DNA of 64,000 nt, from assembly GCF_041913525.1 (NCBI RefSeq), contig NZ_JAYSFD010000002.1, positions 5,186 to 69,185 on the forward strand, given 5' to 3'. The translations under genes and the position numbers were made by a program. Shown here in pieces: positions 9,487-55,804 of the stretch. The stretch is from Hydrogenophaga sp. (GTDB lineage Bacteria > Pseudomonadota > Gammaproteobacteria > Burkholderiales > Burkholderiaceae_C). The notes beneath the pieces were generated by a model that saw only the letters and a program-made list of their open reading frames with translations, made no database searches and was not told where the DNA came from. Within the stretch, counting starts at the first letter, position 1; every line of letters begins with the position of its first letter.

Positions 9487-10524
9487 ATGATGAAGAAGAG
9501 CATCGTTCTGGTGGCCGCCACCTTGGCCACCGGCGCCGCCATGGCCCAGTCCAGCGTGACGCTGTATGGCCTGGCCGACATCTACCTGGCCAGCCAGAAA
9601 AACGCCGCCACCGGTCAGCGCGTGACCAAGCTGGAGAGCAGTGGCATCTACGAAAGCCGCTTTGGCTTCAAGGGCAGCGAAGACCTGGGCGGTGGCTACA
9701 AGGCCAACTTCCAGCTTGAGCAGGGCTTCGCCCTGGACGCCGGCACTGCCAGCACTGGCCAGGCCTTCAGCCGCCAGTCGTGGGTGGGCATCTCCGGTGG
9801 CTTTGGTGACGCGCGCTTCGGCAAGGCCTGGAGCGCCTTCGACGACGTGAGTGGCTCCACCCTGGCGGCCAAGAACTCGGTGCTGGCCCCCAACCAGGGC
9901 ACCTGGCTGACCACCTCGTACAAGGACAACCCGAACAACGGCCTGTACTACGCCACGCCCGAATTCGGCGGCCTGAGCGCGGCCGTGAGCTACGGCCTGG
10001 GCGAGAACAAGACGCCCACCACTGGTGCTGGCTCCATCACCAGCGTGCACGTGAAGTACGGCAAGGGCCCGCTGTTCGCGGCCGTGGCCTACCAGACGGA
10101 AAAGGCGACCTCGGCCGCCAAGGCGATCAACTTCACCCGCCTGAGTGGTTCGTACGACTTCGGCCCGGCCAAGCTGCTGGCCAGCTATGGTCGTGTCAGT
10201 CACGACGGCAGCCGCACCAACGAGTGGGCCCTGGGCGCCGACGTGCCCCTGGGCGGCGGCTGGCTGCTCTCGGGTGGCGTGGCCAACTCGAAGGGTGGCA
10301 TCACCGGTTTCACCGGCGACGCCAACTACACCGGCAAGCTCGTGAACACCGTGGCACCGGGTGCCGCCGATGTGAAGCGCACCGGTTACAGCGTCGCGGC
10401 CTTCTACAGCCTGAGCAAGCGCACCACCGTCTACGGTGGTTACCGCTCCAACACCACCAAGGTGCCGGGTGCTGCCGACCAGGACGGCAGCCTGCTGGCC
10501 GTGGGCATGCTGCACACCTTCTGA
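9487..10524 (+). CDS. Outer-membrane porin (Burkholderiales OmpC/Omp32-like)
   Basis: Signal peptide MMKKSIVLVAATLATGAAMA, then QSSVTLYGLADIY. Beta-strand periodicity throughout and a C-terminal ...GMLHTF. Confidence 0.92.
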   Translation: MMKKSIVLVAATLATGAAMAQSSVTLYGLADIYLASQKNAATGQRVTKLESSGIYESRFGFKGSEDLGGGYKANFQLEQGFALDAGTASTGQAFSRQSWVGISGGFGDARFGKAWSAFDDVSGSTLAAKNSVLAPNQGTWLTTSYKDNPNNGLYYATPEFGGLSAAVSYGLGENKTPTTGAGSITSVHVKYGKGPLFAAVAYQTEKATSAAKAINFTRLSGSYDFGPAKLLASYGRVSHDGSRTNEWALGADVPLGGGWLLSGGVANSKGGITGFTGDANYTGKLVNTVAPGAADVKRTGYSVAAFYSLSKRTTVYGGYRSNTTKVPGAADQDGSLLAVGMLHTF

Positions 10525-20279: not shown

Positions 20280-20290
20280 TTGCCTAGCAA
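20280..20290. promoter_or_regulatory. TTGCCTAGCAA quasi-palindrome, site a
   Basis: Sits in an AT-rich patch 60 nt upstream of the cytochrome c start. TTGCCT could double as a -35 box, with AATCTT 16 nt downstream. Confidence 0.6.
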
Positions 20291-23290: not shown

Positions 23291-23998
23291 GTGGGCTATC
23301 TTTTTGAGCTAACAATCGTGGACTCTGCAAACAACACGCCAGTGGTTGACGTGCCAGCGCGAATTGCCAATGAGATTCAGGCGCTGATCAACCGGGGCAC
23401 GCTGTCGCCTGGTGTTCACCTGGGCCAGGCCGAACTGGCCGAGCGCTTCCAGACCAGCCGCGTGCCGGTGCGCGAAGCCCTCAAACTGCTCGCCGCACAA
23501 GGCAGCCTGCAACACGACCCCAACCGCGGTTTCTTCGTGGCCCCGCTCTCCAGCGATGAGGCCCGCCAGCTTTACCGCATGCGCCACCTGCTTGAGGTGG
23601 ACCTGCTCTCCACCGTGGAGTGGCCCGACAAGCCGCGCCTGGCCCAGCTCAAGGCCATGGTGGCCGAGCTGGAAAGCATCGTGGCCGCCGACGACCGCTC
23701 GCAGTGGGCGGTGAAGCACCGCGAGTTCCAGCTCGCCATCTTTGACCTGTCGCCGCAGAAGCTCATCCTGCGCGAGATCGTGCGCCTCTGGGCCCTGACC
23801 GACCGCTACCGCTCGCTGCTGCTGGCCACGGGCAGCCCCAAGGGCAACAAGAAGGTGGGGCGCGCCTGCGAGCAAGAGCACAAGCTCATTGCCGCGCTGG
23901 AGCAGAAAGACCTCAAGCGCCTGATGGCCGTGTACGACGAGGAGCGCACCTACGTGGAAGAGGTGCTGCTGGGTGTGCTGCGCGACCGCGGCCTCTGA
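23291..23998 (+). CDS. GntR-family (FCD) transcriptional regulator
   Basis: GTG start (an alternative GTG lies at 23318). HTH region LGQAELAERFQTSRVPVREALKLLAAQGSLQHDPNRGFFV. Confidence 0.88.
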   Translation: MGYLFELTIVDSANNTPVVDVPARIANEIQALINRGTLSPGVHLGQAELAERFQTSRVPVREALKLLAAQGSLQHDPNRGFFVAPLSSDEARQLYRMRHLLEVDLLSTVEWPDKPRLAQLKAMVAELESIVAADDRSQWAVKHREFQLAIFDLSPQKLILREIVRLWALTDRYRSLLLATGSPKGNKKVGRACEQEHKLIAALEQKDLKRLMAVYDEERTYVEEVLLGVLRDRGL

Positions 23999-33926: not shown

Positions 33927-34181
33927 TCTTGCAATTCACAACAGCTAGTGAAAACCACTATTAGATGTGTTATTCACGATGGTAGAGTCGCCGGCGTTGG
34001 ATGGACTCCAGCACGCATGCCCTAGCCGACATCCCGCAAAGACGCCGGCGACTGCATGAGTCCAGGGCATGGGCTGAGCGCCGCAGGCGCGGGCACCAGC
34101 TTCCTGATCACACAAATGGCGCGCCGCCTGATGCGCGCTCACTGCCCCACCCCCGGGGGGCGAACCTTGAGGAGAGACAGC

Positions 34182-35306
34182 ATGAAACTCGGATTGATTG
34201 GCGTGGCAGCCCTGATGGCCTGCGCACCCGCGATGGCGCAGGAGGGCGGCATCAAAACCGCCGTGAAGGGCACCGACCTCACCATCTACGGTGTGTTCGA
34301 CCTGTACGCCGCGCGTTACTCCACCACCGCGGCCGGCGTCACCGACACCACCACCGAAGTCGGCTCTGGCGGCGTGGGCGGCTCGCGCCTGGGCTTCCTG
34401 GCCTCGCGCAACGTGAACGCCGACCTGACCGTGGGTGGCCGCCTGGAGGCGGGCATCAACCTGGACTCGGGCCGCATCGGTTCGTCCACCAACCCGGTCG
34501 AGGCCACCGCCCGCACCGACCGCGTGTGGTCGCGCCAGGCTTACCTGTCGATCGCCAGCAAGAAGTTTGGTGAAGTGCGCCTGGGCCGCCAGCAAGGCCC
34601 CACCTACCAGTTCATGACGCAGTACGACCCGATCCTGATGCCCACGGTGGACGGCTGGGGCGTGCTGACCACGCTGGGTTCGCAAGTGGCGGGTTCGACC
34701 TCGGGCTTCTACATCAACCCGACCATCCGCACCGACAACACCATCTACTACCAGTCGCCCGAGTTCAACGGCTTTCACGTGAAGACCTCGTACGCCGGCC
34801 GTGACTCGAAGGACACCGACAAGTCGATCTTCGACTTCTCGCTGAACTACGGCAAAGGCCCGCTCAACGCCAGCCTGCTGCTGCTGCGCGCCAGCGGCTC
34901 CAAGACCAGCACCGACGTGAACGAAGCCGCCCTGGCCGCTTCGTACGACTTCGGCGTGGTCAAGCCCTACATCACCCTCATCCAGCGCGACACCACCAAC
35001 CCGGCCCTCACCGGCGGTGACAACAGCAACCAGCGCACCGCGCTGCTGGGTGCCATCGTGCCGGTGTCCAAGGAAGGCCAGATCCGCCTGAGCCTGGGCC
35101 GCTACAGCAACCAGCGCGCCAACCGCGACGCCACCGGCCTGGCCATTGCCTACACCCACGACGTGGCGCCGGGCTTCATGGTCTACGGCGGCCTGTCGCT
35201 GCTGCGCCAAGACTCGGATTCGCGCATCCCCATCTTCACCAGCGCTATCCCCGACAAGGGCAAGTCGGTGAACGCCATCACCGTGGGCGCGGCGTTCCGC
35301 TTCTGA
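34182..35306 (+). CDS. Outer-membrane porin
   Basis: Start at ATG 34182 (MKLGLIGVAALMACAPAMAQE). Beta-barrel periodicity and C-terminal ...GAAFRF. Confidence 0.9.
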   Translation: MKLGLIGVAALMACAPAMAQEGGIKTAVKGTDLTIYGVFDLYAARYSTTAAGVTDTTTEVGSGGVGGSRLGFLASRNVNADLTVGGRLEAGINLDSGRIGSSTNPVEATARTDRVWSRQAYLSIASKKFGEVRLGRQQGPTYQFMTQYDPILMPTVDGWGVLTTLGSQVAGSTSGFYINPTIRTDNTIYYQSPEFNGFHVKTSYAGRDSKDTDKSIFDFSLNYGKGPLNASLLLLRASGSKTSTDVNEAALAASYDFGVVKPYITLIQRDTTNPALTGGDNSNQRTALLGAIVPVSKEGQIRLSLGRYSNQRANRDATGLAIAYTHDVAPGFMVYGGLSLLRQDSDSRIPIFTSAIPDKGKSVNAITVGAAFRF

Positions 35307-35419: not shown

Positions 35420-35434
35420 GTGGAGGATGAACGA

Positions 35435-36214
35435 GTGAAATTCCAAAAAATGGCGCAGGCACTGGCCTGCACCACCGTGGCCCTGGCCAGCTCGCTGGTC
35501 TTTGCCCAAACCGCCGCGCCGCGCGCCGTGGGCCCGGCCACGCAGGCCGCCGCCGAGCGCGCGCCAGTGAACTTCAATGGCGTCTGGGAGATGCTGGACG
35601 CCAAGGCCGTGACCCGCCCGGGTGGCCCCAAGGCGCCGTATACCGAAAAGTACGCCAAGGAGATGGCCCACTTCACCAAGCACTTCGACGTGAATGACGT
35701 GGACGACCGCATCAAGCTGTGCGACGACCGCGGCATGCCGTGGGTGATGAGCTCGCGCGCCCGCACCTACCCGCACGAGATCTACCAGAACGAAGACCGC
35801 ATGTTCATGCTGTTCGAGGGCATGGACACCGAGCGCAACGTCCACATCGGCCAGACGGCGTTCCCGACCGATGACGGTGCCTCGGTGCAGGGCTATTCCA
35901 TCGGCCGCTGGGAAGGCAAGACCCTGGTCATCGAGACGCGCAAGCTGATGCCGCGCCCCATGCCAGATCCGTTCCCGCGCAGCGCCAAGGCCCGCGTGAT
36001 CGAGCGCTGGACCATGGAGACGCTGCCCGAGGTGGGTGACGTCATCAACGTGGAAGGCGTCTACGAAGACCCCGAGGTCTACACCGAGCCGCAGAAGATC
36101 ACCCAGAAATGGAAGCGGGCCCAGCCGGGCGTGCGCATCCTTTCCTACAACTGCCCGCAAGCCCTGTGGGACAGCCACCTGGCCAAGCGCAAGAAGGAAC
36201 TGGGCCTGCCCTGA
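35435..36214 (+). CDS. Secreted protein of unknown function (paralog of 45819-46583)
   Basis: The likely GTG start at 35435 is 7 nt after GGAGGA (ATG 35450 is an alternative). Signal peptide ...ALASSLVFA|QT. Motifs shared with the paralog: NFNGVWEML, GMPWxMxSRARTYPxEIYQ, SYNCPxxLW. Confidence 0.75.
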   Translation: MKFQKMAQALACTTVALASSLVFAQTAAPRAVGPATQAAAERAPVNFNGVWEMLDAKAVTRPGGPKAPYTEKYAKEMAHFTKHFDVNDVDDRIKLCDDRGMPWVMSSRARTYPHEIYQNEDRMFMLFEGMDTERNVHIGQTAFPTDDGASVQGYSIGRWEGKTLVIETRKLMPRPMPDPFPRSAKARVIERWTMETLPEVGDVINVEGVYEDPEVYTEPQKITQKWKRAQPGVRILSYNCPQALWDSHLAKRKKELGLP

Positions 36215-36366: not shown

Positions 36367-36377
36367 TTGCTAGGCAA
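36367..36377. promoter_or_regulatory. TTGCCTAGCAA quasi-palindrome, site e (inverted: TTGCTAGGCAA)
   Basis: 187 nt upstream of the BNR-propeller gene. Confidence 0.55.
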
Positions 36378-42937: not shown

Positions 42938-43792
42938 ATGAAACTCTTTGACTCGCACGCCCACCTCGTTTCGGCCGACTTCGACCGCTACCCCGTCTCG
43001 CCCCTGTCGGGCGAACTTGACCGCAAGCTCGACAACCCCGTCACCGCCGAGGTGCTGCTGGGCCTGATGGACGAGCAGGGCGTCGAGCGCGCCTGCGCCG
43101 TGCAGCGCGCCCACGTCTATGGCTACAACAACGCCTACGTGATCGACTCGGCCAAGCGCCACGCCGACCGCCTGGTGGCCGTGTGCGTGATCGACGCCGC
43201 CGCCGCCGACTCTGCCGCCACCGTGGCCCGCTGGGCCGACGAAGGCGCCGTGGGCATGCGCCTGTCGGAGAAGACCAAAGGGCAGGGCACCGGCTGGCTC
43301 GATTCCGACAACGCCCAGCGCGCCTGGGAAGCCGTGGAGCGCCTGGGCCTGTCGATGTGCGTGCACATGTACCGCTGGAACCGCCAGGAAGTGCTGCGCA
43401 GCCTGCTGGTGCTGGCCCAGCGCTTCCCCAAGGTGCCCCTGGTGCTGGACCACCTGTCCAACCCCATCGAGGAAAGCGGTGCGCCCGACTACGGCGTGGA
43501 CGCCGACCTGCTGGCGCTCAAGCCGCTGGCCAACGTCTACCTGAAGTACTCGCACATCAACCTGGCGCGCATGGCCAAGAACGGTGTGAACAGCGCCGAC
43601 GTGCTGCACCGCGTGCTGCAAGACTTCCCGGCCGAGCGCGTGATGTGGGGCTCTGACGTGGCCCAGTCCGCCGGCACCTACGACGAAATGGTGGGCGCCG
43701 CCCGGGCCGCCACCGCCAAGCTCTCGCCCGAGCAGGTGCAGGCCGTGCTGCGTGGCACCGCCGAGGCGGTGTACGGCGCGCGCTGGCGCTGA
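42938..43792 (+). CDS. Amidohydrolase-2 family hydrolase (LigI-type lactonase-like)
   Basis: 284 aa. MKLFDSHAHL at the N-terminus, LVLDHL and VMWGSD motifs. Confidence 0.82.
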   Translation: MKLFDSHAHLVSADFDRYPVSPLSGELDRKLDNPVTAEVLLGLMDEQGVERACAVQRAHVYGYNNAYVIDSAKRHADRLVAVCVIDAAAADSAATVARWADEGAVGMRLSEKTKGQGTGWLDSDNAQRAWEAVERLGLSMCVHMYRWNRQEVLRSLLVLAQRFPKVPLVLDHLSNPIEESGAPDYGVDADLLALKPLANVYLKYSHINLARMAKNGVNSADVLHRVLQDFPAERVMWGSDVAQSAGTYDEMVGAARAATAKLSPEQVQAVLRGTAEAVYGARWR

Positions 43793-43808
43793 TCGGGGCC
43801 CGGGCGCC

Positions 43809-45203
43809 ATGGCTGGGCATTCCCCGCCACCGGGCGCGGCCGTTCACGACGGGCTGAAAGGCCGCCGGCGCTGGTTCAGCACCCTGGCCATCGTGCTGGG
43901 CGTGGTGATGACGGTGCTGGCCAATGCCACCACCTACGTGGCCTTGCCCTCCATGGCCCGGTCGCTGGGCGTGGACGCCGGCGTCACCGTCTGGGTCGTC
44001 AACCTCTACCTGCTGGCCACCGTGGTGGCCTTGCTGCCGCTGGCGGCCTGGGGCGACACGCGCGGGCATCGCCGCGTGTTCATGGCCGGCCTGGCGCTGT
44101 TTGCCGCCGCCACCGTGCTGGCCGCCTTGTCGGCCCGCACGCCCTGGCCGCTGCCCACGCTGCTGCTGGCCCGCGCCTTGATGGGCCTGGGCGCCGCCGG
44201 GGTGATGGCCACCTGCATGGCCTTGCTGCGCGCCACCCACCCCAGCCACCGCCTGGGCCGGTTCATCGGCCTCAATGGCATGGCAGTGGCGGCGGCCAAT
44301 GCCGCCGGCCCCAGCGTGGCCGGGGCGGTACTGGCCTGGTCGAACTGGGAAACGCTGCTGGCGCTGCTGCTGGTGCCCGCCGCCGCCACGGCCGCGCTGG
44401 GCTGGCGTTCGCTGCCGCGCAACCCGGTGCTGCGCGAGGCGGCCGTCGATCCGCTGGGTGCCGTGCTTCAGGGCGCGGCCTTTGCTTCTTTGGTGCTGGT
44501 GCTCACGCCGCTGGCCGGTGCCTGGCGCTGGCCCCTGTGCGCGCTGGGCCTGGCCCTGGGGGCGGCGTTCGTGCTGCGCGAGCGCCAGCGGGGCTTTGCG
44601 CTGCTGCCGCTGGATTTGCTCAAGCGGCCCTTGTTCGCGGCCTCTTTCACCGCTGCCTACGCCTGCTTCGTGGCCCAGGTGCTGGCCATGGTGTGCCTGC
44701 CCTTTTTGCTGCAAGGCCGCCTGGGCCTGGGGCCGGGCGCCACTGGCCTGGCCATCACGCCCTGGCCCCTGGCGGTGATGGTCACCGCCCCGCTGGCGGG
44801 GGCCTTGTCCGACCGGGTGTCCACCGCCTGGCTGGGCAGCACCGGCCTCTTGCTGGCCGCGGCGGGGCTGGTGTCGCTGGCCTGGTTGCCCGGCACCGCC
44901 ACCGCGCTGGACGTGGCCTGGCGCATGGCCCTCACCGGCGCCGGCTTTGCCTTGTTCAGCGGCTCGAACGTGCGCGCCCTGATGGCGGCCACGCCGGTGG
45001 AGCGCAGCGGCGCGGTGGGCGGCATGCACGCCATCTCGCGCCAGAGCGGCCAACTGGTGGGCGCCGCACTCGGTGGCCTGGTGCTCAGCCCGGCCGGTTG
45101 GGCCGGTGCCGCCGACCGCGGTTTGCTGCTGGCGGCGCTGATGTCGGGGCTGGCGGCCGTGGCCTGCGGCTTCAAGTCGCGCGACAGCCGGGGCCGTTCA
45201 TGA
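43809..45203 (+). CDS. MFS transporter (DHA-type, about 14 TM)
   Basis: Start at ATG 43809 (MAGHSPPPG). Hydrophobic throughout, with WGDTRGHRRVF loop 2-3 motif. Confidence 0.8.
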   Translation: MAGHSPPPGAAVHDGLKGRRRWFSTLAIVLGVVMTVLANATTYVALPSMARSLGVDAGVTVWVVNLYLLATVVALLPLAAWGDTRGHRRVFMAGLALFAAATVLAALSARTPWPLPTLLLARALMGLGAAGVMATCMALLRATHPSHRLGRFIGLNGMAVAAANAAGPSVAGAVLAWSNWETLLALLLVPAAATAALGWRSLPRNPVLREAAVDPLGAVLQGAAFASLVLVLTPLAGAWRWPLCALGLALGAAFVLRERQRGFALLPLDLLKRPLFAASFTAAYACFVAQVLAMVCLPFLLQGRLGLGPGATGLAITPWPLAVMVTAPLAGALSDRVSTAWLGSTGLLLAAAGLVSLAWLPGTATALDVAWRMALTGAGFALFSGSNVRALMAATPVERSGAVGGMHAISRQSGQLVGAALGGLVLSPAGWAGAADRGLLLAALMSGLAAVACGFKSRDSRGRS

Positions 45204-45222
45204 TGGTCCCGATTGGTTCAGA

Positions 45223-45233
45223 TTGCCTAGCAA
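45223..45233. promoter_or_regulatory. TTGCCTAGCAA quasi-palindrome, site b
   Basis: 129 nt upstream of small-protein copy 1, in an AT-rich patch. Confidence 0.6.
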
Positions 45234-45350
45234 AAGAAAACTCAAAATACTTAGTGTAATCACCAATACAAGAATGAAGTCTCGGTCCTAAGATCGCCGC
45301 CATCCCCCTGCCGGAGTGGTCCATTCCGGCCCAGACAGACCCACATGAGA

Positions 45351-45766
45351 GGAGACCTGCCATGTTTTCGATTCGCCAACTGGTGCAAGCCGCTGCGGTG
45401 GCCGCGCTGACCCTGGGCACGGTGGCCGTGCACGCCCACCACTCGCCCGCCGCGTGGGAGATCACCAAGCGCAACAGCGTCACGGGCGTGGTGAAGGACG
45501 CGTCGTTCCGCAACCCGCACGGGCAGATCACGCTGGCGGTGACCAACGAGCAAGGGCAGACGGAAGAGTGGCGCGTGGAGACCAGCGCGGCCAACCTGCT
45601 GCGCCGCCGTGGCTGGGACTTCTCCAAGGTCACGCCGGGTTTGAAGATCCGCGTGGTGGGGCACCTGAACAAGGAGCAGCCGCGCGAGATTTACATCCGC
45701 GAGATCCACTTTGAAGACGGCACGGTCTTTGGCGACAAGGGCGGCAATGACGCCGCGCTCGACTGA
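45351..45766 (+). repeat. Dispersed duplicate, copy 1 (RBS + whole small-protein gene)
   Basis: Five mismatches over 416 bp versus 50483-50898, including a 378-bp perfectly identical run (45370-45747). Confidence 0.95.
45362..45766 (+). CDS. Small secreted protein, predicted mature N-terminus HHS... (I recall this as DUF6152-like), copy 1
   Basis: 134 aa. Signal MFSIRQLVQAAAVAALTLGTVAVHA|HHSPAAWE. RBS GGAGA. Confidence 0.8.
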   Translation: MFSIRQLVQAAAVAALTLGTVAVHAHHSPAAWEITKRNSVTGVVKDASFRNPHGQITLAVTNEQGQTEEWRVETSAANLLRRRGWDFSKVTPGLKIRVVGHLNKEQPREIYIREIHFEDGTVFGDKGGNDAALD

Positions 45767-45818
45767 TCCGCTCTGCTTCGACGCTTTCTTTTTCGATTCA
45801 CAACAGGAGACACCCCCC

Positions 45819-46583
45819 ATGATTTCTCGCCTGCCTTTCAAGCGCGCCCTGGCCGTGCTGGCCTCCACCGTGGTCCTGGCGGCCTGCAGCTCGGTGCCGC
45901 AGTCGCCCTCGTCGTCTGAAGCCCTGGGTGGCAAGCCCAACTTCAACGGTGTGTGGGAAATGCTCGACATGGCCAAGGTGGTTCGCCCCGAGCAAGGCAC
46001 GCCGCCGTACACGCCCGAGGCCGCCAAGGTGGCCGCCGAGTTCAAGTCGTGGGACCCCAAGAAAGACGATCCCTCGCTGTACTGCGACCTCAAGGGCATG
46101 CCCTGGATGATGCTGTCGCGCGCCCGCACCTACCCGGCCGAGATCTACCAGACCGCCGAGCGCGTTGACGTGTTCTTCGAGCTGTTCGACACCTCGCGCA
46201 GCATCCGCGTGAACGGCAAGCCCGCGCCCAAGAACATCTCGCCCAGCATCAACGGCTACTCCACCGCCACCTGGGACAACGACACCCTGGTCATCAAGAC
46301 CACCGCCCTGGCCGAGCGCCTGTACCCGAGCCCGCAACTGCGCTCGGAAAAGGCCGAACTCACCGAGCGCTGGAAGATGGTGAAAGACCCGAAAGAGGGT
46401 GACCTGATCGAGATCGACTTCGAGATCGTGGACCCGGTGGTCTACACCCGCCCGGTCAAGGGCAAGCAGGTGTTCAAGCGCGCCGCACCCGACGTGGTGG
46501 TGGCCAGCTACAACTGCCCCGAGAAGCTGTGGCTCAAGCACGTGGACGACCGCCGCGCCCAGGGCAAAGCCGCCGCCAAGTAA
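45819..46583 (+). CDS. Lipoprotein of unknown function (paralog of 35435-36214)
   Basis: Start at ATG 45819 after AGGAGA. Lipobox VVLAAC. Shares motifs with the paralog. Confidence 0.8.
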   Translation: MISRLPFKRALAVLASTVVLAACSSVPQSPSSSEALGGKPNFNGVWEMLDMAKVVRPEQGTPPYTPEAAKVAAEFKSWDPKKDDPSLYCDLKGMPWMMLSRARTYPAEIYQTAERVDVFFELFDTSRSIRVNGKPAPKNISPSINGYSTATWDNDTLVIKTTALAERLYPSPQLRSEKAELTERWKMVKDPKEGDLIEIDFEIVDPVVYTRPVKGKQVFKRAAPDVVVASYNCPEKLWLKHVDDRRAQGKAAAK

Positions 46584-46600
46584 ACCCGCCTGTGTTGACC

Positions 46601-46634
46601 AGCCGCGCCTCACCCGGGGCGTGGCTTTCTGTTT
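46601..46634 (+). terminator. Hairpin + T-rich tail
   Basis: agccgcgcc-tcacccgg-ggcgtggct then ttctgttt. Confidence 0.55.
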
Positions 46635-46646
46635 GAGAGCATCCCC

Positions 46647-47480
46647 ATGAGCCAAGCCCCTGTTTCCCCCGTCAACGTGTCCCGCCGCCGTGGCCTGGTG
46701 GGTGCCGCCCTGGCCGCCGTGGCCGCCCCGCTGGTGAGCACGCCGGCCCAGGCCCAGCCCGCCGCTGGCGCCAAAAAAACCTTTGTGCTGCTGCCCCCCG
46801 CCTGGGCCGGCAGCTGGATCTACACCAAGACCGCCGACTGGCTGCGCGCGCAAGGCCATGTGGTCTACACCCCCACGCTCACCGGCCTGGCCGAGCGCGC
46901 CCACCTGCTGCGCCCCGACGTGAACATGGACACCCACGTGCAAGACGTGGTGAACCTCATCAAGTGGGAAGAGCTGAGCAACGTGGTGCTGGTGGGTCAC
47001 TCCTTCACCGGTGGCGTGGTCAGCGGCGTGGCCGAGAAGGTGCTGGACAAGCTGGCCTCGGTGATCTTCGTGAACGCCTACGTGCACGAAAACGGCGCCT
47101 CCATCCAGGACTACCTGAGCCAGCGCTCGCACGCCGACATCGACGCCCGCCTGGCCAAGGGCGAGCTGGGCCTGCCCAACCCGCCAGCGGCTTTCTATGC
47201 CCTGCCGCAGAAAGAGTGGGCGCGCATCGACGAGCTGCACACCCCGCACCCGCTGGGCGCCATCGTGCAGAAGCTCAAGCTCACCGGCGCGGTGGAGCGC
47301 GTGCCCAAGAAGACCTACATCATGCTGGCGCAGTTCGCGCGTGGCCGCGACTACGAGCTCAAGCACTTCAACCGCGTCAAGGGCCAGCCGGGCTGGAACA
47401 CCGTCTCGGTGGAGAAGGGGCACCTGCCCATGGTGGACGACCCGGTGGGCTTCGCCCAGTTGCTGCTGCAAGCCGCCTGA
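46647..47480 (+). CDS. Tat-exported alpha/beta-hydrolase (esterase, SABP2/methylesterase-like)
   Basis: Twin-arginine signal SRRRGLVGAALAAV...AQA. Nucleophile elbow GHSFTG. C-terminal His region GHLPMVD. Confidence 0.82.
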   Translation: MSQAPVSPVNVSRRRGLVGAALAAVAAPLVSTPAQAQPAAGAKKTFVLLPPAWAGSWIYTKTADWLRAQGHVVYTPTLTGLAERAHLLRPDVNMDTHVQDVVNLIKWEELSNVVLVGHSFTGGVVSGVAEKVLDKLASVIFVNAYVHENGASIQDYLSQRSHADIDARLAKGELGLPNPPAAFYALPQKEWARIDELHTPHPLGAIVQKLKLTGAVERVPKKTYIMLAQFARGRDYELKHFNRVKGQPGWNTVSVEKGHLPMVDDPVGFAQLLLQAA

Positions 47481-47494
47481 CCGGGAGCGACGCG

Positions 47495-47824
47495 ATGAAC
47501 CTCTTCCGACTCGCCACCTTCGCTGCCCTCTTCGGCGCCGCCGCGGCCGCCCAGGCCCAGACCGAGGCCGACGCCCTGTTCGCCAACAAGATCTGCTTCG
47601 CCTGCCACAGCGTCACCAAGGCCGACTTCAAGCGCATCGGCCCCTACGTGGTGGACATCAAGGCCAAGTACCAGGGCCAGGCCGACGCCCGCGCTTACCT
47701 CAAGGACAAGATCCTGCGCGGCAGCGCCGGGGTGTGGGGCCCGGCCGAGAGCTCGGTGATGCCCGCCAACAAAGTGACCGACGCCGAGGCCGACCTGCTG
47801 GCCGGCTGGATCCTCACCCAATAA
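47495..47824 (+). CDS. Class I monoheme cytochrome c (c551/c552-like)
   Basis: Start at ATG 47495. Signal peptide, CFACH heme motif, and a distal Met in SVMPAN. Confidence 0.88.
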   Translation: MNLFRLATFAALFGAAAAAQAQTEADALFANKICFACHSVTKADFKRIGPYVVDIKAKYQGQADARAYLKDKILRGSAGVWGPAESSVMPANKVTDAEADLLAGWILTQ

Positions 47825-47833
47825 GCCCAGGCC

Positions 47834-49399
47834 ATGACACTCCCCCCAAAGCTCAGTGCGCGCGATTTCACGCGTGCGGTGGCCGAGTTGCGCTCCATCG
47901 TGGGCGCCGACTGGGTGTTCACCGAAGAAGACGACCGCCAGGCCTGGCGCGACCCCATGTTCCCGGGCGACGCGCGCCGCGTGGACCTGTCGGCCGCGGT
48001 GGCCCCCGCCACCGTGCAAGAGGTGCAGGCCGTGGTGAAGGTGGCCAACCGCTACCGCCTGCCGCTGTGGCCGGTGTCCACGGGCAAGAACTACGCCTAC
48101 GGCGGCGCCTCGCCCGCGCTGAAGGGCACCATCGTGCTCGACCTCAAGCGCATGAACCGCATTCTTGAGGTCAATGAGCAATACGGCTACGCCATCGTCG
48201 AGCCCGGCGTCACCTACTTTGACCTGTACCGCCACATCAAGGCCAAGGGCCTGAAGCTGTGGATCGACTGCCCCTCGCCAGGCTGGGCCAGCGTGCTGGG
48301 CAACGCCATGGAGCGCGGCCTGGGCAACACGCCCTACAGCGACCACGCCGCGCAACAGTGCGGCATGGAAGTGGTGCTGCCCACCGGCGACCTGGTGCGC
48401 ACCGGCATGGGCGCCATCGAGAACAGCCCGCTGTGGGGCCTGCAGAAAAACCCCTTCGGCCCCACCTTCGACGGCATGTTCATGCAGTCCAACCTGGGCA
48501 TCGTCACCAAGATGGGCATCTGGCTCATGCCCGAGCCCGAGGTGTTCGCGCAGTGCAACATCCGCCTGCAGCGCGAAGACGCCCTGGGCCCCATGATCGA
48601 CGCCCTGCGCCCGCTGCGCCTGAACGGCACCATCCAGAACCCGGCCAGCGTGCGAAGCTGGATCGGCATGCTGCTGGGCCAGGCCGCCAAGAAAGAGGTG
48701 CACGACGGCCCCGGCGCCATTCCGCGCGAACTGGTGCCGCAGATCCTGCAGCAGCGCAACCTGTCGTGGTGGAGCACTGGCTTCTCGCTCTACGGTTACG
48801 AAGAGGTGGTGGAGGCCAACCTCAAGGTGGTGCGCAAGGCCCTGGGCAGCGTGCCCGGCGCCGAGGCGCTATCGGTGCGCAAGTCGGCCGGCGACAAAGT
48901 GCCCGACAGCGCCGGCACGCAGGCCGGCGTGCCCAGCCTGGGCGCGTTCTCCACGCTCAACTGGCCAGGCGGGCGCGGCTCGCACCTCGATTTCTCGCCG
49001 GTGTACGAGCCCAGCGGGGCCGTGGCCATGGCCGAGTACCAGTTCATGCGCGAGCTGTTCGAGCGCCACGGCTTTGACTTCCCCGCCACCTACTCGATTA
49101 CCTCGCCGCGCTACATGGCCTGCGTCACGCCCATCATGTTCGACGCCGACAACCGCCAGCAGGCCGAGGCCGCCGGGCGCCTGTTCCTGGAGGCCCACCA
49201 GCACCTGGGCACCAAGGGCTATGGCCTGTACCGCGCCCACGTGGCCTTCATGGACCAGGTGCAGCAGGCGCAAGGCTTCAACCAGCACGCGCTGCGCCGC
49301 CTGAGCGAGCGCATCAAGGATGCGCTGGACCCGCAAGGCATCCTGGCACCCGGCAAACAAGGCATCTGGCCCAAGGCCATGAAAGGGGGCCGTGCATGA
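47834..49399 (+). CDS. PCMH/VAO-family FAD flavoprotein subunit (p-cresol methylhydroxylase PchF / 4-alkylphenol hydroxylase-like)
   Basis: 521 aa with an FAD_binding_4 N-terminal domain (LWPVSTGKNYAYGG) and a VAO-type cap and C-terminus. Confidence 0.88.
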   Translation: MTLPPKLSARDFTRAVAELRSIVGADWVFTEEDDRQAWRDPMFPGDARRVDLSAAVAPATVQEVQAVVKVANRYRLPLWPVSTGKNYAYGGASPALKGTIVLDLKRMNRILEVNEQYGYAIVEPGVTYFDLYRHIKAKGLKLWIDCPSPGWASVLGNAMERGLGNTPYSDHAAQQCGMEVVLPTGDLVRTGMGAIENSPLWGLQKNPFGPTFDGMFMQSNLGIVTKMGIWLMPEPEVFAQCNIRLQREDALGPMIDALRPLRLNGTIQNPASVRSWIGMLLGQAAKKEVHDGPGAIPRELVPQILQQRNLSWWSTGFSLYGYEEVVEANLKVVRKALGSVPGAEALSVRKSAGDKVPDSAGTQAGVPSLGAFSTLNWPGGRGSHLDFSPVYEPSGAVAMAEYQFMRELFERHGFDFPATYSITSPRYMACVTPIMFDADNRQQAEAAGRLFLEAHQHLGTKGYGLYRAHVAFMDQVQQAQGFNQHALRRLSERIKDALDPQGILAPGKQGIWPKAMKGGRA

Positions 49400-49839
49400 A
49401 CGCCCGCTTGCTGAACCGCGCGGCCACCCTGGTCGTCCTTTCGCTGGGCCTGCTCGCCACCAGCGCCCAGGCCGATGGCCCGGCCCCGGCGGCAGCCGCC
49501 GCCCCGGCCGCGCCAGTGGCCGCCCCGGTGCCTGAGAACCTCACGCCCGCCCAGGCCGAAGGCCGCCAGTTGTATGGCGTGCACTGCATCTACTGCCACG
49601 GCGCCGGCCCCGGCCGTGCCGGCACCACCGCGCTGGCCCGCCGCGTGGGCAAAGACCGCGCCGTGCTGGAAGCGCGCGACGACCTGGACCGCGCCTACGT
49701 GCAGTACGTGGTGCGCCATGGCCTGAACGCCATGCTGCCGCTGCGCCGCACCGAACTCACCGACGCCGAACTGGGCCGCATCGTTGACTGGCTGCAGCGC
49801 CCTCGCGCGGCGCAGACGGCCTCGGGGGCCAAACCATGA
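49396..49839 (+). CDS. Cytochrome c subunit (PchC-like) of the flavocytochrome
   Basis: ATGA overlap with the flavoprotein gene. Signal peptide, Ala/Pro linker, and CIYCH heme motif. Confidence 0.85.
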   Translation: MNARLLNRAATLVVLSLGLLATSAQADGPAPAAAAAPAAPVAAPVPENLTPAQAEGRQLYGVHCIYCHGAGPGRAGTTALARRVGKDRAVLEARDDLDRAYVQYVVRHGLNAMLPLRRTELTDAELGRIVDWLQRPRAAQTASGAKP

Positions 49840-50264
49840 GCGACCGCCGCCAGTTCCTCGGCCTGGCCGCCGCCAGCGCCGCCACCGGCGGCTGGCTGGC
49901 CGGCCCGGCGCACGCCAGCGCCTCGGCCTTGCCCCAAACCCCGGCCTCGCCTGAGCCCGTGCACTGGTGGGTGGACGCCCGGCGCCCGGTGGCGCTTCAG
50001 GCGGTGCAGCGTCTGGCCCGCTTGGGCGAGCCGGTGCACGCCTTGCCCGCCCGCCTGGCGCCCGATTGGGCCGCCGCACGGCTGGCCCAGGCGCAGGCCG
50101 AGGGCGCGGCGGTGGCCGGCGTGGCTTCCATGGCCGACGCCTTTGTGCTGCGCCAGCTCGCCCTGGACGCCGGCTGGCGCATCGCCGCCTTGCAGGTGGC
50201 GCCCGCCAGTGCGAACAGCCCGGCCCTGGTGTCGTGGCGCTTTCAGTCGCCGCCCCAGGCATGA
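49836..50264 (+). CDS. Tat-signal protein of unknown function
   Basis: ATGA overlap. MSDRRQFLGLAAASAATGGWLAGPAHA twin-arginine signal. 142 aa. Confidence 0.65.
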   Translation: MSDRRQFLGLAAASAATGGWLAGPAHASASALPQTPASPEPVHWWVDARRPVALQAVQRLARLGEPVHALPARLAPDWAAARLAQAQAEGAAVAGVASMADAFVLRQLALDAGWRIAALQVAPASANSPALVSWRFQSPPQA

Positions 50265-50346
50265 CCGCCTGAACCCACCGCCGCCGCGGCGCACGCCGGC
50301 CAAGGCCGCTCCGTTCGCTGTGGCCATTTTTTCGCCCCTGCTTAAA

Positions 50347-50357
50347 TTGCCTAGCAA
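50347..50357. promoter_or_regulatory. TTGCCTAGCAA quasi-palindrome, site c
   Basis: 137 nt upstream of small-protein copy 2. TATCTT lies 16 nt after TTGCCT. Confidence 0.6.
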
Positions 50358-50482
50358 CTATAGCTAATTATCTTGGTATAAATACCGATGCCCCATGGGG
50401 TTATGCGGCCCTACCATTGGTTCATGGCTGATGCCTCTTGGCGAAGCCACCTGCCTGCTTTCCCGTTTTCGATTCCACACAA

Positions 50483-50898
50483 GGAGACCTGTCATGTTTT
50501 TGATTCGCCAACTGGTGCAAGCCGCTGCGGTGGCCGCGCTGACCCTGGGCACGGTGGCCGTGCACGCCCACCACTCGCCCGCCGCGTGGGAGATCACCAA
50601 GCGCAACAGCGTCACGGGCGTGGTGAAGGACGCGTCGTTCCGCAACCCGCACGGGCAGATCACGCTGGCGGTGACCAACGAGCAAGGGCAGACGGAAGAG
50701 TGGCGCGTGGAGACCAGCGCGGCCAACCTGCTGCGCCGCCGTGGCTGGGACTTCTCCAAGGTCACGCCGGGTTTGAAGATCCGCGTGGTGGGGCACCTGA
50801 ACAAGGAGCAGCCGCGCGAGATTTACATCCGCGAGATCCACTTTGAAGACGGCACGGTCTTTGGCGACAAGGGCGGCAACGACGCCGCGCTGGATTGA
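50483..50898 (+). repeat. Dispersed duplicate, copy 2
   Basis: See 45351-45766. Confidence 0.95.
50494..50898 (+). CDS. Small secreted HHS-N-terminus protein, copy 2
   Basis: Start at ATG 50494 (MFLIRQLV). 134 aa, differing from copy 1 only at residue 3 (S/L). Confidence 0.8.
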   Translation: MFLIRQLVQAAAVAALTLGTVAVHAHHSPAAWEITKRNSVTGVVKDASFRNPHGQITLAVTNEQGQTEEWRVETSAANLLRRRGWDFSKVTPGLKIRVVGHLNKEQPREIYIREIHFEDGTVFGDKGGNDAALD

Positions 50899-51395
50899 TG
50901 GGCGAACGGCACTTTTTCCTGGCGCCGCTGCTGGGCGCCCTGGCGCTGTCGGGCACCGCGTCGATGGCGGCCGAAGACCTGGACAAGGGCGTGGAACCCG
51001 TGGGCCCGGCCAACTACCGCCCCGCTGAAACCCGCCTGCGCAGCGACACCGTGAAGCTGGTGCTCAAGCCCGAGGAACAGGTGGAGGTGAAGACCCTGCT
51101 GGCCGAAGGCCAGGTCATCACCTACCAGTGGACCAGCAAGGGCGCCAAAGAGGGCGAGCTGTACGTGGACTTCCACGGCCACACCCTGCCGCCGCCGGGC
51201 CAGAAAGAGCGCGTGGTGCGCTACGCCGAAGGCGAGCACACCGCCGGGCGCGGCGCCATCGTGGCGCCCCTCACGGGTGAGCACGGCTGGTTCTGGCTGA
51301 ACATGGGCACCAAGCCCGTGACGATCGAGTTGCGCGTCAGCGGCTTCCACACCAAGGTCGAACAACACCGCATCCAGACGCCAGGCAAGTCCTGA
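50898..51395 (+). CDS. Secreted beta-rich protein of unknown function
   Basis: The ATG overlaps the upstream stop (TGATG). Signal LAPLLGALALSGTASMA. 165 aa. Contains DFHGH and GEHGWFWLN motifs. Confidence 0.7.
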   Translation: MGERHFFLAPLLGALALSGTASMAAEDLDKGVEPVGPANYRPAETRLRSDTVKLVLKPEEQVEVKTLLAEGQVITYQWTSKGAKEGELYVDFHGHTLPPPGQKERVVRYAEGEHTAGRGAIVAPLTGEHGWFWLNMGTKPVTIELRVSGFHTKVEQHRIQTPGKS

Positions 51396-51558
51396 CCGCG
51401 CCCTTTCGATTCGATTGCTCCAAGGTGGCTCGCCGGTTGCCCTGCGCAACCGGGCATTGCTGCTCACCCGGGTGGCCCAGACCGGGTGTTCGTTTCGCCA
51501 CATGGGCCCATCGGCCCGTGTGGCGTCTTTTTTGTCACAACCCACAAGAGGTGAGACC

Positions 51559-53001
51559 GTGTTTCTCCCAAGCATTCCCACGCCCTTGCTGAGCGCCATT
51601 CGCCGCTCGCTGGGTGCGCTGGCCGTGGCCAGCCTGTCGGCCACCGCCTTCGCCCAGGGCGCCGCCGTGCCCGCCGCCCCGGCCAAGGCCCAGTTGTGCG
51701 CCAGTTGCCACGACGGTGGCGTGAAGATGGGCACGCCGCCCGTGAACGTGCCCAAGCTGGTGCGCCAGCAGTCCGACTACATCCACACCGCGCTGCACCA
51801 GTTCCGCAGCGGCCAGCGCAAGAACGAGACCATGCAGGCCATCGCGGCCGGCCTGAGCGACCAGGACATCCGCGAACTGGCCGACCACTTCGGCGGCGTG
51901 CGCCCCCTGCCGGTGCGCATGCCCGAGGGCATGGTGATGCCCAAGGTGGTCAAGCAGGTGTGCGAGAACTGCCACGGCATGACCGGCGTGGCCTCGCTGC
52001 CCGAGACGCCCATCATCGGTGGCCAGCACCGCGACTTCCTGCGCGTCACGCTGGAGAACTTCCGCAATGGCCAGCGCCACAGCACGGTGATGAGCCCCAT
52101 CGCCCAGATGCTGAGCGACGAAGACATCCGCGTGGTGGCCGAGTACTACGAGACGGTGCACAACTACTTCGTGCCGCCCACGGCCAAGGAAATCGAGCAG
52201 GCCGCCCAGTCGAACCTGGCCGTCTCGGGCCCGGTGACGCTGGTGAAGCACCAGCCGACCAAGCCCCAGAGCGCGGCCGAGCAGAAGAAGGCCGCCCTGG
52301 CCATTGCCGCCTCGCTGGAGATGGTGACCCTGCCGGCCGGCAACTTCCTGATGGGCAGCCCCGCCGACGAGGGCGACGCCCCCGGCCTGCCGCGCCATAC
52401 GGTGACGCTCAAGTCCTTCAAGATGGCCAAGAACATGGTCACCTTTGACCAGTTCGACGCCTACTCTAAGGCCACCGGCCGGGCCCTGGTGAACGACGGC
52501 GGCATGAAGCGCGGCAACTACCCGGTGATCAACATCACCATGGGCGAGTCGCAGGCCTTCATCGACTGGCTCAACCGCCACACCGGCCGCCGCTTCAAGG
52601 TGCCCAGCGAGTCCGAGTGGGAATACGCCGCCCGCGCCGGCACCACCACGCACTACTGGTGGGGCGACAAGGTGGACTTCGGCAAGTACAACTCCTTCCG
52701 CAACGAAGGCGCCGACATCTGGCCCACCACCTCGCCCGTGGGCGCCTTCCCGCCCAACCCCTGGGGCCTGCACGACATGACCGGCAATGTGTTCCAGCGC
52801 GTCTCCGATTGCCGCCGCCCCACCTACGACGGCAAGCCCACCGATGGCAGCCCGGTGGTGGGCGAGCCCTGCCTGCTCAAGACCATGCGCGGTGGCTCGT
52901 GGCGCAACCTCAGCGGTGCCGCCCGCCACGCCACCCGCAGCGGCGTGACCGACGAGCTGATCAGCACCTCCATCGGCCTGCGCGTGGCCGAAGACCTCTG
53001 A
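51559..53001 (+). CDS. Fusion protein: diheme cytochrome c4-like N-terminus + FGE-sulfatase (SUMF1/EgtB/PvdO) domain
   Basis: Probable GTG start at 51559 after AAGAGG (ATG 51502 is an alternative). Signal peptide. CASCH and CENCH heme motifs with c4-type spacing. FGE motifs SESEWEYAARAG, NPWGLHDMTGNVFQ and MRGGSW. Confidence 0.85.
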   Translation: MFLPSIPTPLLSAIRRSLGALAVASLSATAFAQGAAVPAAPAKAQLCASCHDGGVKMGTPPVNVPKLVRQQSDYIHTALHQFRSGQRKNETMQAIAAGLSDQDIRELADHFGGVRPLPVRMPEGMVMPKVVKQVCENCHGMTGVASLPETPIIGGQHRDFLRVTLENFRNGQRHSTVMSPIAQMLSDEDIRVVAEYYETVHNYFVPPTAKEIEQAAQSNLAVSGPVTLVKHQPTKPQSAAEQKKAALAIAASLEMVTLPAGNFLMGSPADEGDAPGLPRHTVTLKSFKMAKNMVTFDQFDAYSKATGRALVNDGGMKRGNYPVINITMGESQAFIDWLNRHTGRRFKVPSESEWEYAARAGTTTHYWWGDKVDFGKYNSFRNEGADIWPTTSPVGAFPPNPWGLHDMTGNVFQRVSDCRRPTYDGKPTDGSPVVGEPCLLKTMRGGSWRNLSGAARHATRSGVTDELISTSIGLRVAEDL

Positions 53002-53008
53002 TCGACCC

Positions 53009-53037
53009 GCCAGCCGCCCCGCGCACGGGCGGCTGGC
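53009..53037. terminator. Perfect 11-bp-stem hairpin between convergent genes
   Basis: GCCAGCCGCCC-cgcgcac-GGGCGGCTGGC, with no T-run. Confidence 0.55.
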
Positions 53038-53046
53038 CCGGCGACA

Positions 53047-53907
53047 TCAGGCGCCGTAGTACCCCACGGCCAGCACGAGCTGGCCCACCCGCTGCACGAA
53101 GGTGGTCTTGGGCTCCTTGTGCCGGGTGACCGGGTTGAGCCACACGTAGCGCGTCTCCACCACCTCACCCACCTTCGCGCGGCGCACCATTTCGCGGCCG
53201 ATGAAGTGGCGGTTGGCGTCTTTCAAGTACGTCACGTTGCGGCCCACCAGGCGCGGCTGCGTGCCGTGGGCGTGCATCACCATGTCGTTGGCGCCGATGG
53301 CGAACACGTACAGGTCGTCTTGCACGAAAGCGCCGTTCACGTCGTTGAACTCGGCCAGCACCGCCGGCCCGCGCTGCTCCAGTGCCTTCACCGCGCGCGC
53401 TAGCCAGGCCCGCGCCTCGGTGGCGGTGGCCCGATCGATCATCTGGCTCACCACGATCACCGCCTCGCCCACGCGGCGGAAGTGCACCGTCTTGGTCTCG
53501 TCCTGGCCGGTGCGGCGGTTGGTCCAGCGGTAGTTCAGGCTGGTGGGGGCATCGGCCCGCGCCCGCTCCAGAACGGTGGCGATGTAGGCGCCGCCCTCGC
53601 GGTCGCGGTGCCCGCGCACGTCTTGCCCGATGAACACCTCGGACGGCCCGCCACTGGCCTTGAGCACCCCATCGGCGCCCAGCACATAGACGTACAGCCC
53701 GGCCTCGTCAAAGGCCCCGCCGCGCTGGAAGGCGGGCAAGGCGGCGTCGCCCCGGCGCTGGTAGAGCGCGGCGGCCCGCGCCAGCAGATCCAGTGCGCGG
53801 GCGTTGTCACTGGCCGCAAAGGCTGGGCCGGCAGCGAGCGCTGGCATGGCCAGCAGCGAACAAGACAAAAAACGGCGACGATCGGCAGAAAAGGGGGTAG
53901 GCATCAC
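53047..53907 (-). CDS. Tat-exported protein made of two single-Cache (sCache_2-like) domains, no output domain
   Basis: 286 aa. Signal SADRRRFLSCSLLAMPALAAGPAFA. Two repeats follow the pattern LYVxxxGADG...H...G... and end in ...V(V/A)VG(S/Y). Confidence 0.75.
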   Translation of the reverse strand: MMPTPFSADRRRFLSCSLLAMPALAAGPAFAASDNARALDLLARAAALYQRRGDAALPAFQRGGAFDEAGLYVYVLGADGVLKASGGPSEVFIGQDVRGHRDREGGAYIATVLERARADAPTSLNYRWTNRRTGQDETKTVHFRRVGEAVIVVSQMIDRATATEARAWLARAVKALEQRGPAVLAEFNDVNGAFVQDDLYVFAIGANDMVMHAHGTQPRLVGRNVTYLKDANRHFIGREMVRRAKVGEVVETRYVWLNPVTRHKEPKTTFVQRVGQLVLAVGYYGA

Positions 53908-53942
53908 ACGGCTCCAAGGCGATTGCGGTCGTAGAATGCTAC

Positions 53943-53959
53943 AACATTGCTAGGCAATG
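53943..53959. promoter_or_regulatory. TTGCCTAGCAA family, site d: perfect 17-bp palindrome ACATTGC-TAG-GCAATGT
   Basis: Located in the 132-bp divergent region, 40 nt from the Cache gene start and 83 nt from the DUF1993 start. Confidence 0.65.
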
Positions 53960-54039
53960 TATAAGGCTTAACCAACCCGACCCTGACGGTGGCGCTGGCA
54001 AAGGCGCGCCCACGGGCCGTTTTTTGATGGAGACAAACC

Positions 54040-54561
54040 ATGTCCTTTTCCTTGTATGACGCCACCGTACCCGCCTGGCGCCAGACCCTGCGCGCGGTGA
54101 TGGGCTACCTCGACAAGGCCCAGGCCCATTGCGACGCGCAAGGCGTGGCGCCGGCCACGCTGATCGAGGCGCGCCTGATCGACGACATGTTCCCGCTGGG
54201 CTTCCAGATCAACTCGGTGTGCGTGCACTCGCTGGGCGCCATCGAGGGCGTGCGCCGTGGCACCTTCTCGCCCGATCGCTCGCCCTGGCCGGCCGACTTT
54301 GCCGGCCTGCGCGCCAAGGTGCAGGCCACGCTGGAGGCGATCGAGCGCCTGCAGCCCGACGACGTGAACGGCCTCATGGGCCGCGACGTCACCTTCCAGC
54401 GCGGCGAGGTGGCCGTGCCCTTCGTGGCCGAGAACTTCCTGCTGTCGTTCTCGCTGCCCAACTTCTATTTCCACGCCGCCACGGGCTACGACATCCTGCG
54501 CTCGCGCGGCGTGCCGCTGGGCAAGGTGGACTACCTAGGCGCCGTGCGCAAAAAGGCCTGA
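54040..54561 (+). CDS. DUF1993-family protein
   Basis: 173 aa. MSFSLYDATVPAWRQTLRAVMGYLDKA and FYFHAATGYDILR are typical of DUF1993. Confidence 0.85.
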   Translation: MSFSLYDATVPAWRQTLRAVMGYLDKAQAHCDAQGVAPATLIEARLIDDMFPLGFQINSVCVHSLGAIEGVRRGTFSPDRSPWPADFAGLRAKVQATLEAIERLQPDDVNGLMGRDVTFQRGEVAVPFVAENFLLSFSLPNFYFHAATGYDILRSRGVPLGKVDYLGAVRKKA

Positions 54562-55793: not shown

Positions 55794-55804
55794 TTGACTA
55801 GCAA
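55794..55804. promoter_or_regulatory. TTGCCTAGCAA-like site f (TTGACTAGCAA)
   Basis: One mismatch, 63 nt upstream of the hupE-like start. Confidence 0.5.

Follow-up and report, generated by a model that had tools for sequence, protein, structure and literature searches.

Within a 64,000-nt stretch of Hydrogenophaga sp. DNA (contig NZ_JAYSFD010000002.1, positions 5,186 to 69,185; hereafter the window), two nearly identical copies of a short gene of the DUF6152 family head two separate gene units. One copy is followed by the lipoprotein gene g2 (locus A), and the other, 5.1 kb further on, by g7, which encodes a small secreted protein (locus B). Our analysis indicated, with a probability of roughly 0.85, that these are two old, independently promoted loci, each headed by DUF6152, and that their coding sequences have been repeatedly homogenised by gene conversion. 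A first-pass annotation of the window had proposed either ongoing gene conversion or a recent duplication. The first proposal was supported by a relative in which the copies are identical within the genome and differ by about 21% between genomes, and by interior variants shared between the copies. The second was contradicted by the presence of the same two loci, again with identical copies, in this relative at a synonymous divergence (dS) of about 1.

The extent of the repeat was determined by pairwise alignment of 45251-45866 with 50383-50998. Only 5 of 416 nt differed (98.8% identity) between 45351-45766 (copy A) and 50483-50898 (copy B), which are direct repeats on the + strand with a start-to-start spacing of 5132 nt. 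Each copy consists of a ribosome-binding site and a complete DUF6152 gene, the coding sequences lying at 45362-45766 (134 aa, PF19649 E=1.1e-20) and 50494-50898. The mismatches were found at repeat offsets 9, 18, 397, 409 and 412, corresponding to 45360, 45369, 45748, 45760 and 45763 in copy A and to 50492, 50501, 50880, 50892 and 50895 in copy B, with an identical run of 378 nt in between (45370-45747 in copy A). If 5 differences were placed randomly over 416 nt, a run of at least 378 nt would be obtained with P=2.6e-5; the differences are clustered at the ends. The similarity begins at AGGAGACCTG, 11-12 nt 5' of the ATG, and stops at TGA(T), and outside these borders local alignment of the flanks recovered only the 12-mer ATTGCCTAGCAA. 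At the protein level, S3L in the signal peptide was the sole change, the remaining coding differences being synonymous and the mature proteins identical. The mismatch count, the 378-bp run and the borders from ribosome-binding site to stop codon given in the first-pass annotation were all reproduced by the alignment and the list of sites, and its description of the flanks as unrelated also held, the motif ATTGCCTAGCAA aside.

The pair was the sole long, high-identity repeat within the window. Repeat search and neighbour annotation revealed neither a transposase or integrase nor inverted repeats on the flanks of either copy, in agreement with the earlier statement that insertion sequences, integrases and terminal repeats are absent. 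The copies did not have the character of a mobile element or cassette, as their neighbours are catabolic or periplasmic genes without a recombinase and their borders are a ribosome-binding site and a stop codon.

Evidence for concerted evolution was provided by a relative that carries both loci (JGI sample 3300042896, contigs L019 and L023). The gene order on L019 is MFS transporter, DUF6152, g2, hydrolase, cytochrome c, FAD oxidase, cytochrome c, a 145-aa gene and a g2 paralogue. Next come a promoter of the B type and another DUF6152 gene, of which the first 183 nt are present before the contig ends. L023 opens within a DUF6152 gene, whose final 118 nt it contains, and continues with g7 and a cytochrome c-FGE gene; contig breaks inside the DUF6152 gene, for this same pair, occurred in two independent samples. 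The B fragments of the relative were identical to its own A copy over 119/119 nt (L019 end) and 118/118 nt (L023 start, up to the TGA). Every flanking gene differed between the relative and the window with dS of 0.9-1.3, and the DUF6152 orthologues with dS of 0.90 and 21.5% of nucleotides, whereas the dS between the paralogues of the window was 0.03. Expressed as p-distance, the copies differed by 0.010 within the window and 0.000 within the relative, and by 0.215 between the genomes. Thus, the paralogues do not diverge at the rate of their flanks, which was the comparison with related genomes recommended in the first-pass annotation.

The grouping of the upstream regions was different. At the A loci (window, L019 and L020), the 11-mer TTGCCTAGCAA is followed by a spacer of 17-18 nt and then TTAGYGTAAWYAC, and at the B loci (window, L022 and L019) by a spacer of 15 nt and then TGGTRTAAAYACC. 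The promoter cores therefore cluster by locus across species, and the coding sequences cluster by genome. Two loci with unique flanks, syntenic in two lineages, whose copies group by genome and whose surroundings group by position, with paralogues closer than orthologues, correspond to the definition of concerted evolution. Since the synonymous sites are identical as well, the identity is not explained by protein constraint. Near-identity is also not a property of the DUF6152 family, because the duplicates of other genomes (L088 and L094) share only 32-36% protein identity.

A recent duplication from locus A to the site before g7, or in the reverse direction, without ongoing exchange, was the best of the alternatives, though an improbable one. 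It would agree with the 98.8% identity between the copies, with no other divergence in the window, and with the variable copy number in the clade, as seen in a contig with a single copy and no g7 unit (L020). This contig (Ga0502304_3769187, 2203-8383) carries one DUF6152 gene (85% protein identity), and the genes between it and cytochrome c-FGE form an unbroken row. On this evidence, the B unit (promoter, DUF6152 and g7) appears to have been inserted into an operon that is older. However, the relative has the same two loci at a dS of about 1 with copies identical within its genome, and several lineages have a B-type promoter and pair DUF6152 with g7. A recent origin would thus require separate duplication events that all reached one site and stopped at one stop codon. 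Moreover, the B copy on L019 retains a non-homologous 5' end: about the first 60 nt of the relative's B gene are unlike its A gene (37-53% different), which is incompatible with a fresh duplication and shows that the putative tract ends differ between species. The conserved pairings, the grouping of promoter cores by locus and the presence of both loci in the relative all argue that the two loci are old.

The variation among strains was then compared between the two loci. Two independent metagenome contigs, Ga0255127_1000319 (25 kb, 99.2% identical to the window) and Ga0255140_1000061 (52 kb, 98.9%), contained both copies, with locus-specific end sites as in the window, and many shorter contigs agreed with the two-copy layout. 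The states of the end sites were C,C...T,C,C in A and T,T...C,G,T in B. When the window was compared with the 52-kb contig L099, the interior sites 280, 289, 290 and 298 grouped by genome, both copies being alike, and the end sites 9, 397, 409 and 412 grouped by locus in both genomes. Site 298 was C in both copies of the window; L001 had C in its A copy and T in its B copy, and the A copies of L002 and L007 had T. The haplotype 268T, 280-282 GGT, 289-290 CG, 298T occurred next to A flanks in L096 and next to B flanks in L097 and L098, and the three 3' sites of these strains read C,C,C at either locus. Site 18 (Ser/Leu) was polymorphic in the A copy (L017, L011 and L099). Interior variants were thus common to the copies and locus-specific sites were confined to the ends, a pattern that, as read from these contigs, is a classical conversion mosaic.

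Import from another strain was a further alternative. In horizontal homologous replacement, one copy would recently have been overwritten by DNA from another strain, and the differences between strains at interior sites, the contigs with mixed haplotypes and the behaviour of contig L100, whose identity changes from 99% to 92% right at the repeat, are in its favour. Imported tracts normally reach into the flanks, yet in two species the identity stops at the gene borders, and the copies within a genome are closer to each other than to the copies of other strains, which makes this explanation very improbable. An assembly artefact, in which the repeat was misplaced twice or a chimeric join was made, had been named in the first-pass annotation as a finding that would overturn the conversion reading. 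Short contigs with mixed junctions demonstrated that assemblers do take wrong paths through the repeat. Nevertheless, the locus-specific sites lie less than 20 nt from unique flank and would therefore be phased with it by any assembler, and the layout was reproduced in the independent 25-kb and 52-kb contigs; we consider an artefact excluded for practical purposes. Purifying selection alone, through extreme protein or mRNA constraint, would accord with the low ratio of non-synonymous to synonymous divergence (dN/dS) of about 0.15 between orthologues but was refuted by the synonymous sites, at dS 0.03 for paralogues against 0.9, near saturation, for orthologues.

We therefore retain gene conversion as the explanation. 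The DUF6152 coding sequences would be homogenised by non-reciprocal homologous recombination between the direct repeats, presumably in a RecA-type process, with conversion tracts extending only as far as the homology. Tracts limited in this manner would account for the borders of identity at the ribosome-binding site (inside the signal peptide in the relative) and at the stop codon, and the locus-specific end sites would mark the usual tract stops. Because the direct repeats are only 5.1 kb apart, deletion and duplication of the intervening genes would also be expected. Contigs with an A-upstream/B-downstream junction (L005, L008 and L100) and with a B-upstream/A-downstream junction (L012, L013, L016 and L098) were indeed present. 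Among them, the 99-kb contig L100 (FWPV01000597.1, repeat at 9989-10406) is without the 5.1-kb cassette, and its identity to the window falls from 99.0% to 91.8% exactly at the repeat. The mixed-junction contigs could represent real deletion or duplication recombinants or chimeric assemblies; a chimera is at least as likely for L100, because the identity switches exactly at the repeat.

Several points weigh against homogenisation by conversion. The relative is the sole other species with both loci, and its B copy is represented by two contig ends with about 104 nt between them unobserved; no third species with both loci was found, P0005 and P0006 being of B context only. The population data are short-read metagenome assemblies, in which sites more than about one k-mer from the flank are not securely phased, so part of the shared polymorphism could reflect the choice of the assembler, and conversion was read from assembled contigs. 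In addition, the signal-peptide sequences are not kept by locus between species, and comparison of signal-peptide similarity gave no direction of transfer. As for the range of genomes covered, a scan of the genome collection with the single DUF6152 protein gave no match, and a scan with the family alignment recovered distant relatives only (at most 58% identity, all metagenome-assembled genomes (MAGs)). The metagenome scan added only contigs of the same species and distant relatives, and the plasmid collection contained no near match, with three distant Novosphingobium protein matches only.

Gene conversion homogenises copies without any need of selection. For this reason, the identity of the copies does not imply selection for the same protein in two contexts, as had been concluded in the first-pass annotation. 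What could be shown, as estimated from the comparison of orthologues, was purifying selection on the DUF6152 protein (the dN/dS of about 0.15) and retention of both intact copies.

Concerted evolution of the same kind has been shown experimentally for tufA/tufB of Salmonella and E. coli, which evolve via RecA-dependent gene conversion (Paulsson et al. 2017, PMC5485169; that paper also cites Abdulkarim and Hughes 1996 on tufA/tufB conversion). The two systems share paralogues in different transcription units of one chromosome, an identity that stops at the borders of the coding sequence, few and synonymous differences, and paralogues that are more alike than orthologues. They differ in that the DUF6152 gene is short (405 nt) and non-essential-looking with a secreted product, and in that its copies are direct repeats 5.1 kb apart, with deletion or duplication of the cassette as an expected side product. 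The DUF6152 case is also modest in duration (about dS 1), comprises two lineages and is known from sequence alone. A survey by Wang and Chen (2018, PMC6053082) described 26 genes with long-lasting, recurrent concerted evolution, for example amoCAB, psbA/psbD and etfAB of Burkholderiales. As in that survey, orthology of the loci was established here by synteny and paralogues clustered by genome, and many of the genes listed there work with partner proteins, as the DUF6152 protein apparently does. The survey required at least 5 species, compared with two here, and DUF6152 is not in its list; a further difference is that conversion in the present case affects just the gene at the head of each unit, and the partners are mutually unrelated.

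The DUF6152 pair is a clean example of a well-known process, which would not surprise a specialist and leaves the understanding of recombination unchanged. Its value is that natural gene conversion can be followed on a short accessory gene with tract ends at the single-nucleotide level in two species and several wild strains, and it illustrates that close identity between the paralogues of one genome is no proof of a recent origin. A practical hazard is also evident, since short-read metagenome assemblies are broken or mis-joined by the repeat at this locus. The main residual interest lies in the partner modules of DUF6152 and in the possible loss or gain of the cassette. One module, DUF6152 with a calycin-like lipoprotein, is conserved and sometimes fused, and the other brings in a second partner family with metal-site-like motifs; both provide a starting point for the functional assignment of families that so far lack one.

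Regarding the setting of the two loci, the surrounding window is an aromatic-catabolism island with a G+C content of 68%, encoding a LigXa-type Rieske oxygenase, Amidohydro_2 proteins, MFS transporters and a porin. The motif TTGCCTAGCAA occurred exactly five times in the window, at 20280-20290(+), 36367-36377(-), 45223-45233(+), 50347-50357(+) and 53947-53957(-), with one additional site with one mismatch at 55794-55804(+), against an expectation of 0.58 matches with one mismatch allowed. All of these sites lie in AT-rich intergenic DNA in front of operons of the island, and in relatives the motif was conserved 5' of both DUF6152 loci (L019 at 4329 and 10207, L020 at 2057 and L022 at 58). The shared site that had been reported upstream of both copies was therefore present as described, and the five exact occurrences mean that it is not private to them. 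A palindromic element is conserved downstream of TTGCCTAGCAA at both copies, and in DUF6152 upstream regions a palindrome resembling a GntR operator, e.g. TTGGTATAAATACCAAT, follows the motif after 15-18 nt. A GntR/FCD regulator is encoded at 23291-23998. Taken together, the TTGCCTAGCAA sites, the GntR-operator-like palindromes and the GntR/FCD gene look like a small regulon.

The putative promoter/operator core of locus A (45223..45269, +) consists of TTGCCTAGCAA at 45223-45233, a 17-nt spacer and the palindrome-like TTAGTGTAATCACCAATAC, an architecture shared with the A loci of L019 and L020. That of locus B (50347..50391, +) consists of TTGCCTAGCAA at 50347-50357, a 15-nt spacer and the palindrome TTGGTATAAATACCGATGC, with the same type of spacer at the B loci of L022 and L019. 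A scan for sigma-70 promoters gave no match. No riboswitch or leader RNA accounts for the repeat, because an Rfam scan of 43000-54500 gave only a sub-threshold chance match.

The DUF6152 protein of the window was assigned to PF19649 with 73.9 bits (gathering cut-off 27, E=1.1e-20). The signal peptide of its precursor ends in AHA and the predicted mature N-terminus is HHS. In an alignment of 40 members, three invariant blocks were recognised, A-H-H-S at the predicted signal-peptidase site, F-x-N-P-H-G and L-R-R-R-G-W, with His26 and His27 (at the predicted mature N-terminus) and His53 as invariant histidines. The AlphaFold2 model, with a predicted local distance difference test (pLDDT) score of 85.8, adopted a classical oligonucleotide/oligosaccharide-binding (OB) fold: strands at 38-48, 54-61 and 67-74, a helix at 77-82 and strands at 95-103 and 109-117 form a predicted five-stranded barrel with the helix between strands 3 and 4. 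Foldseek with this model returned generic OB folds (SSB, PriB and the LysRS anticodon-binding domain) with E of about 2e-4 to 1e-3. For a comparison with periplasmic copper/metal chaperones (CusF-like, or N-terminal histidine-brace proteins such as CopC), the invariant His26, His27 and His53 would be candidate ligands; the 50 matches listed, down to E of about 2.4e-3, were generic OB folds, with no metallochaperone among them. No mention of DUF6152 was found in the literature searched, and NCBIfam held no models for DUF6152, g2 or g7. Within the Pfam family, the window protein shares the AHHS, NPHG and LRRRGW motifs and a downstream partner of the g2 type; pairing with g7 in place of g2 is peculiar to the clade of the window.

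The products of both units, DUF6152-g2 and DUF6152-g7, are all exported. An accessory role in the periplasm that involves metal binding may be indicated by the metal-linked context of g7 and by the invariant histidines of DUF6152, the N-terminal His-His and His53. As a weak inference, DUF6152 may be a periplasmic OB-fold accessory protein with a possibly metal-binding N-terminal His-His that works with the protein encoded immediately downstream. A more ambitious interpretation is doubtful: DUF6152 would be a novel periplasmic OB-fold accessory binding metal through His-His and the His of NPHG and docking on g2 (A) or g7 (B), the identity of the copies would be adaptive, so that one protein fits a shared periplasmic oxidative machinery (flavocytochrome, cytochrome c-FGE), and the repeats would let populations delete or amplify a 5.1-kb oxidase cassette.

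At locus A, copy A is preceded by an MFS transporter gene and followed by g2 (45819..46583, +), which encodes a 254-aa lipoprotein with the lipobox LAAC and without a Pfam family, the family-wide partner of DUF6152. In a set of 71 distant DUF6152 loci from species-representative genomes (L025-L095), a g2-like gene was detected by tblastn directly 3' of DUF6152 in about 60. These loci belong to Gammaproteobacteria, Steroidobacteraceae, Novosphingobium and one Bryobacterales MAG. DUF6152 and g2 are fused in frame as a single open reading frame in 3 loci (L083 from 2280 onward, L086 from 9935 onward and L092 from 9818 onward). The g2-type proteins contain the motif PDFSGxW and two invariant Cys, and the AlphaFold2 model of g2 was beta-rich with weak calycin-like matches (FABP, avidin and lipocalin; template-modelling score about 0.3-0.5). 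A sequence search of solved structures with g2 and g7 gave no match.

A terminator-like hairpin (46601..46626, +; 11-bp stem, T-rich tail), recognised by consensus scan only, follows g2. The block between the copies (46647..50264), all on the + strand, contains a twin-arginine translocation (TAT)-signal alpha/beta hydrolase (46647-47480), a monohaem cytochrome c (47495-47824), a FAD_binding_4 oxidase (47834-49399), a second cytochrome c (49396-49839) and a 142-aa TAT-signal protein (49836-50264). The layout of the oxidase with the two small cytochromes c (47834-49839 and 47495-47824) resembles that of p-cresol methylhydroxylase/eugenol hydroxylase flavocytochromes. With an FAD oxidase, cytochromes c, a TAT-signal hydrolase and the 142-aa TAT-signal protein, the cluster as a whole appears periplasmic. 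A paralogue of g2 is present elsewhere in the window at 35420-36211 (42% identical to g2 and 97% to a protein labelled Hydrogenophaga sp. at NCBI); it adjoins the porin gene (34056-35306) and has no DUF6152 gene before it. The extra g2 paralogue of L019 (9371-10138) lies just before the B promoter of that contig.

At locus B, a 230-nt spacer precedes copy B, and the ATG of g7 (50898..51395, +) overlaps the TGA of the copy. The g7 product is a His-rich secreted protein of 165 aa without a Pfam family, with invariant DFHGH and GEHGW. A g2-type partner behind copy B, too, was considered and rejected, as BLASTP between g2 and g7 was negative and hhalign gave a probability of 0.2%. The order DUF6152-g7 was found in every relative with a close g7 homologue (L022, L023, L097, L129 and L130). 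A strong terminator-like hairpin follows g7 (51496..51525, +; 13-bp stem, then a T-run, TCTTTTTTGT), and behind it a gene with a GTG start (51559..53001, +) encodes a cytochrome c fused to an FGE-sulfatase (PvdO-like) domain. The hairpin with TCTTTTTTGT (51496-51535) ends just 24 nt upstream of this GTG. The two different operons of the first-pass annotation are thus separate units, as proposed, and are better described as two-gene units, DUF6152 plus partner, each followed by a terminator-like hairpin.

Distant g7 homologues are membrane-anchored proteins of 212 aa (L124-L126, 6001-6639; L127, 6001-6474), encoded directly after a CzcCBA-type resistance-nodulation-division (RND) efflux operon and before a HupE_UreJ_2 gene. 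This neighbourhood of the g7 family suggests a metal-related role, judged from gene order. A HupE_UreJ_2 gene is also located near locus B of the window. Just before the ATG of g7, three synonymous changes specific to B convert CTCGAC to CTGGAT; the change from CTCGACTGA (45757-45768) to CTGGATTGA (50889-50900) may create a Shine-Dalgarno-like GGA for g7. These changes may favour initiation of g7 translation and hence be kept by selection, a reading tempered by some strains in which the A-type 3' sequence occurs in the B context.

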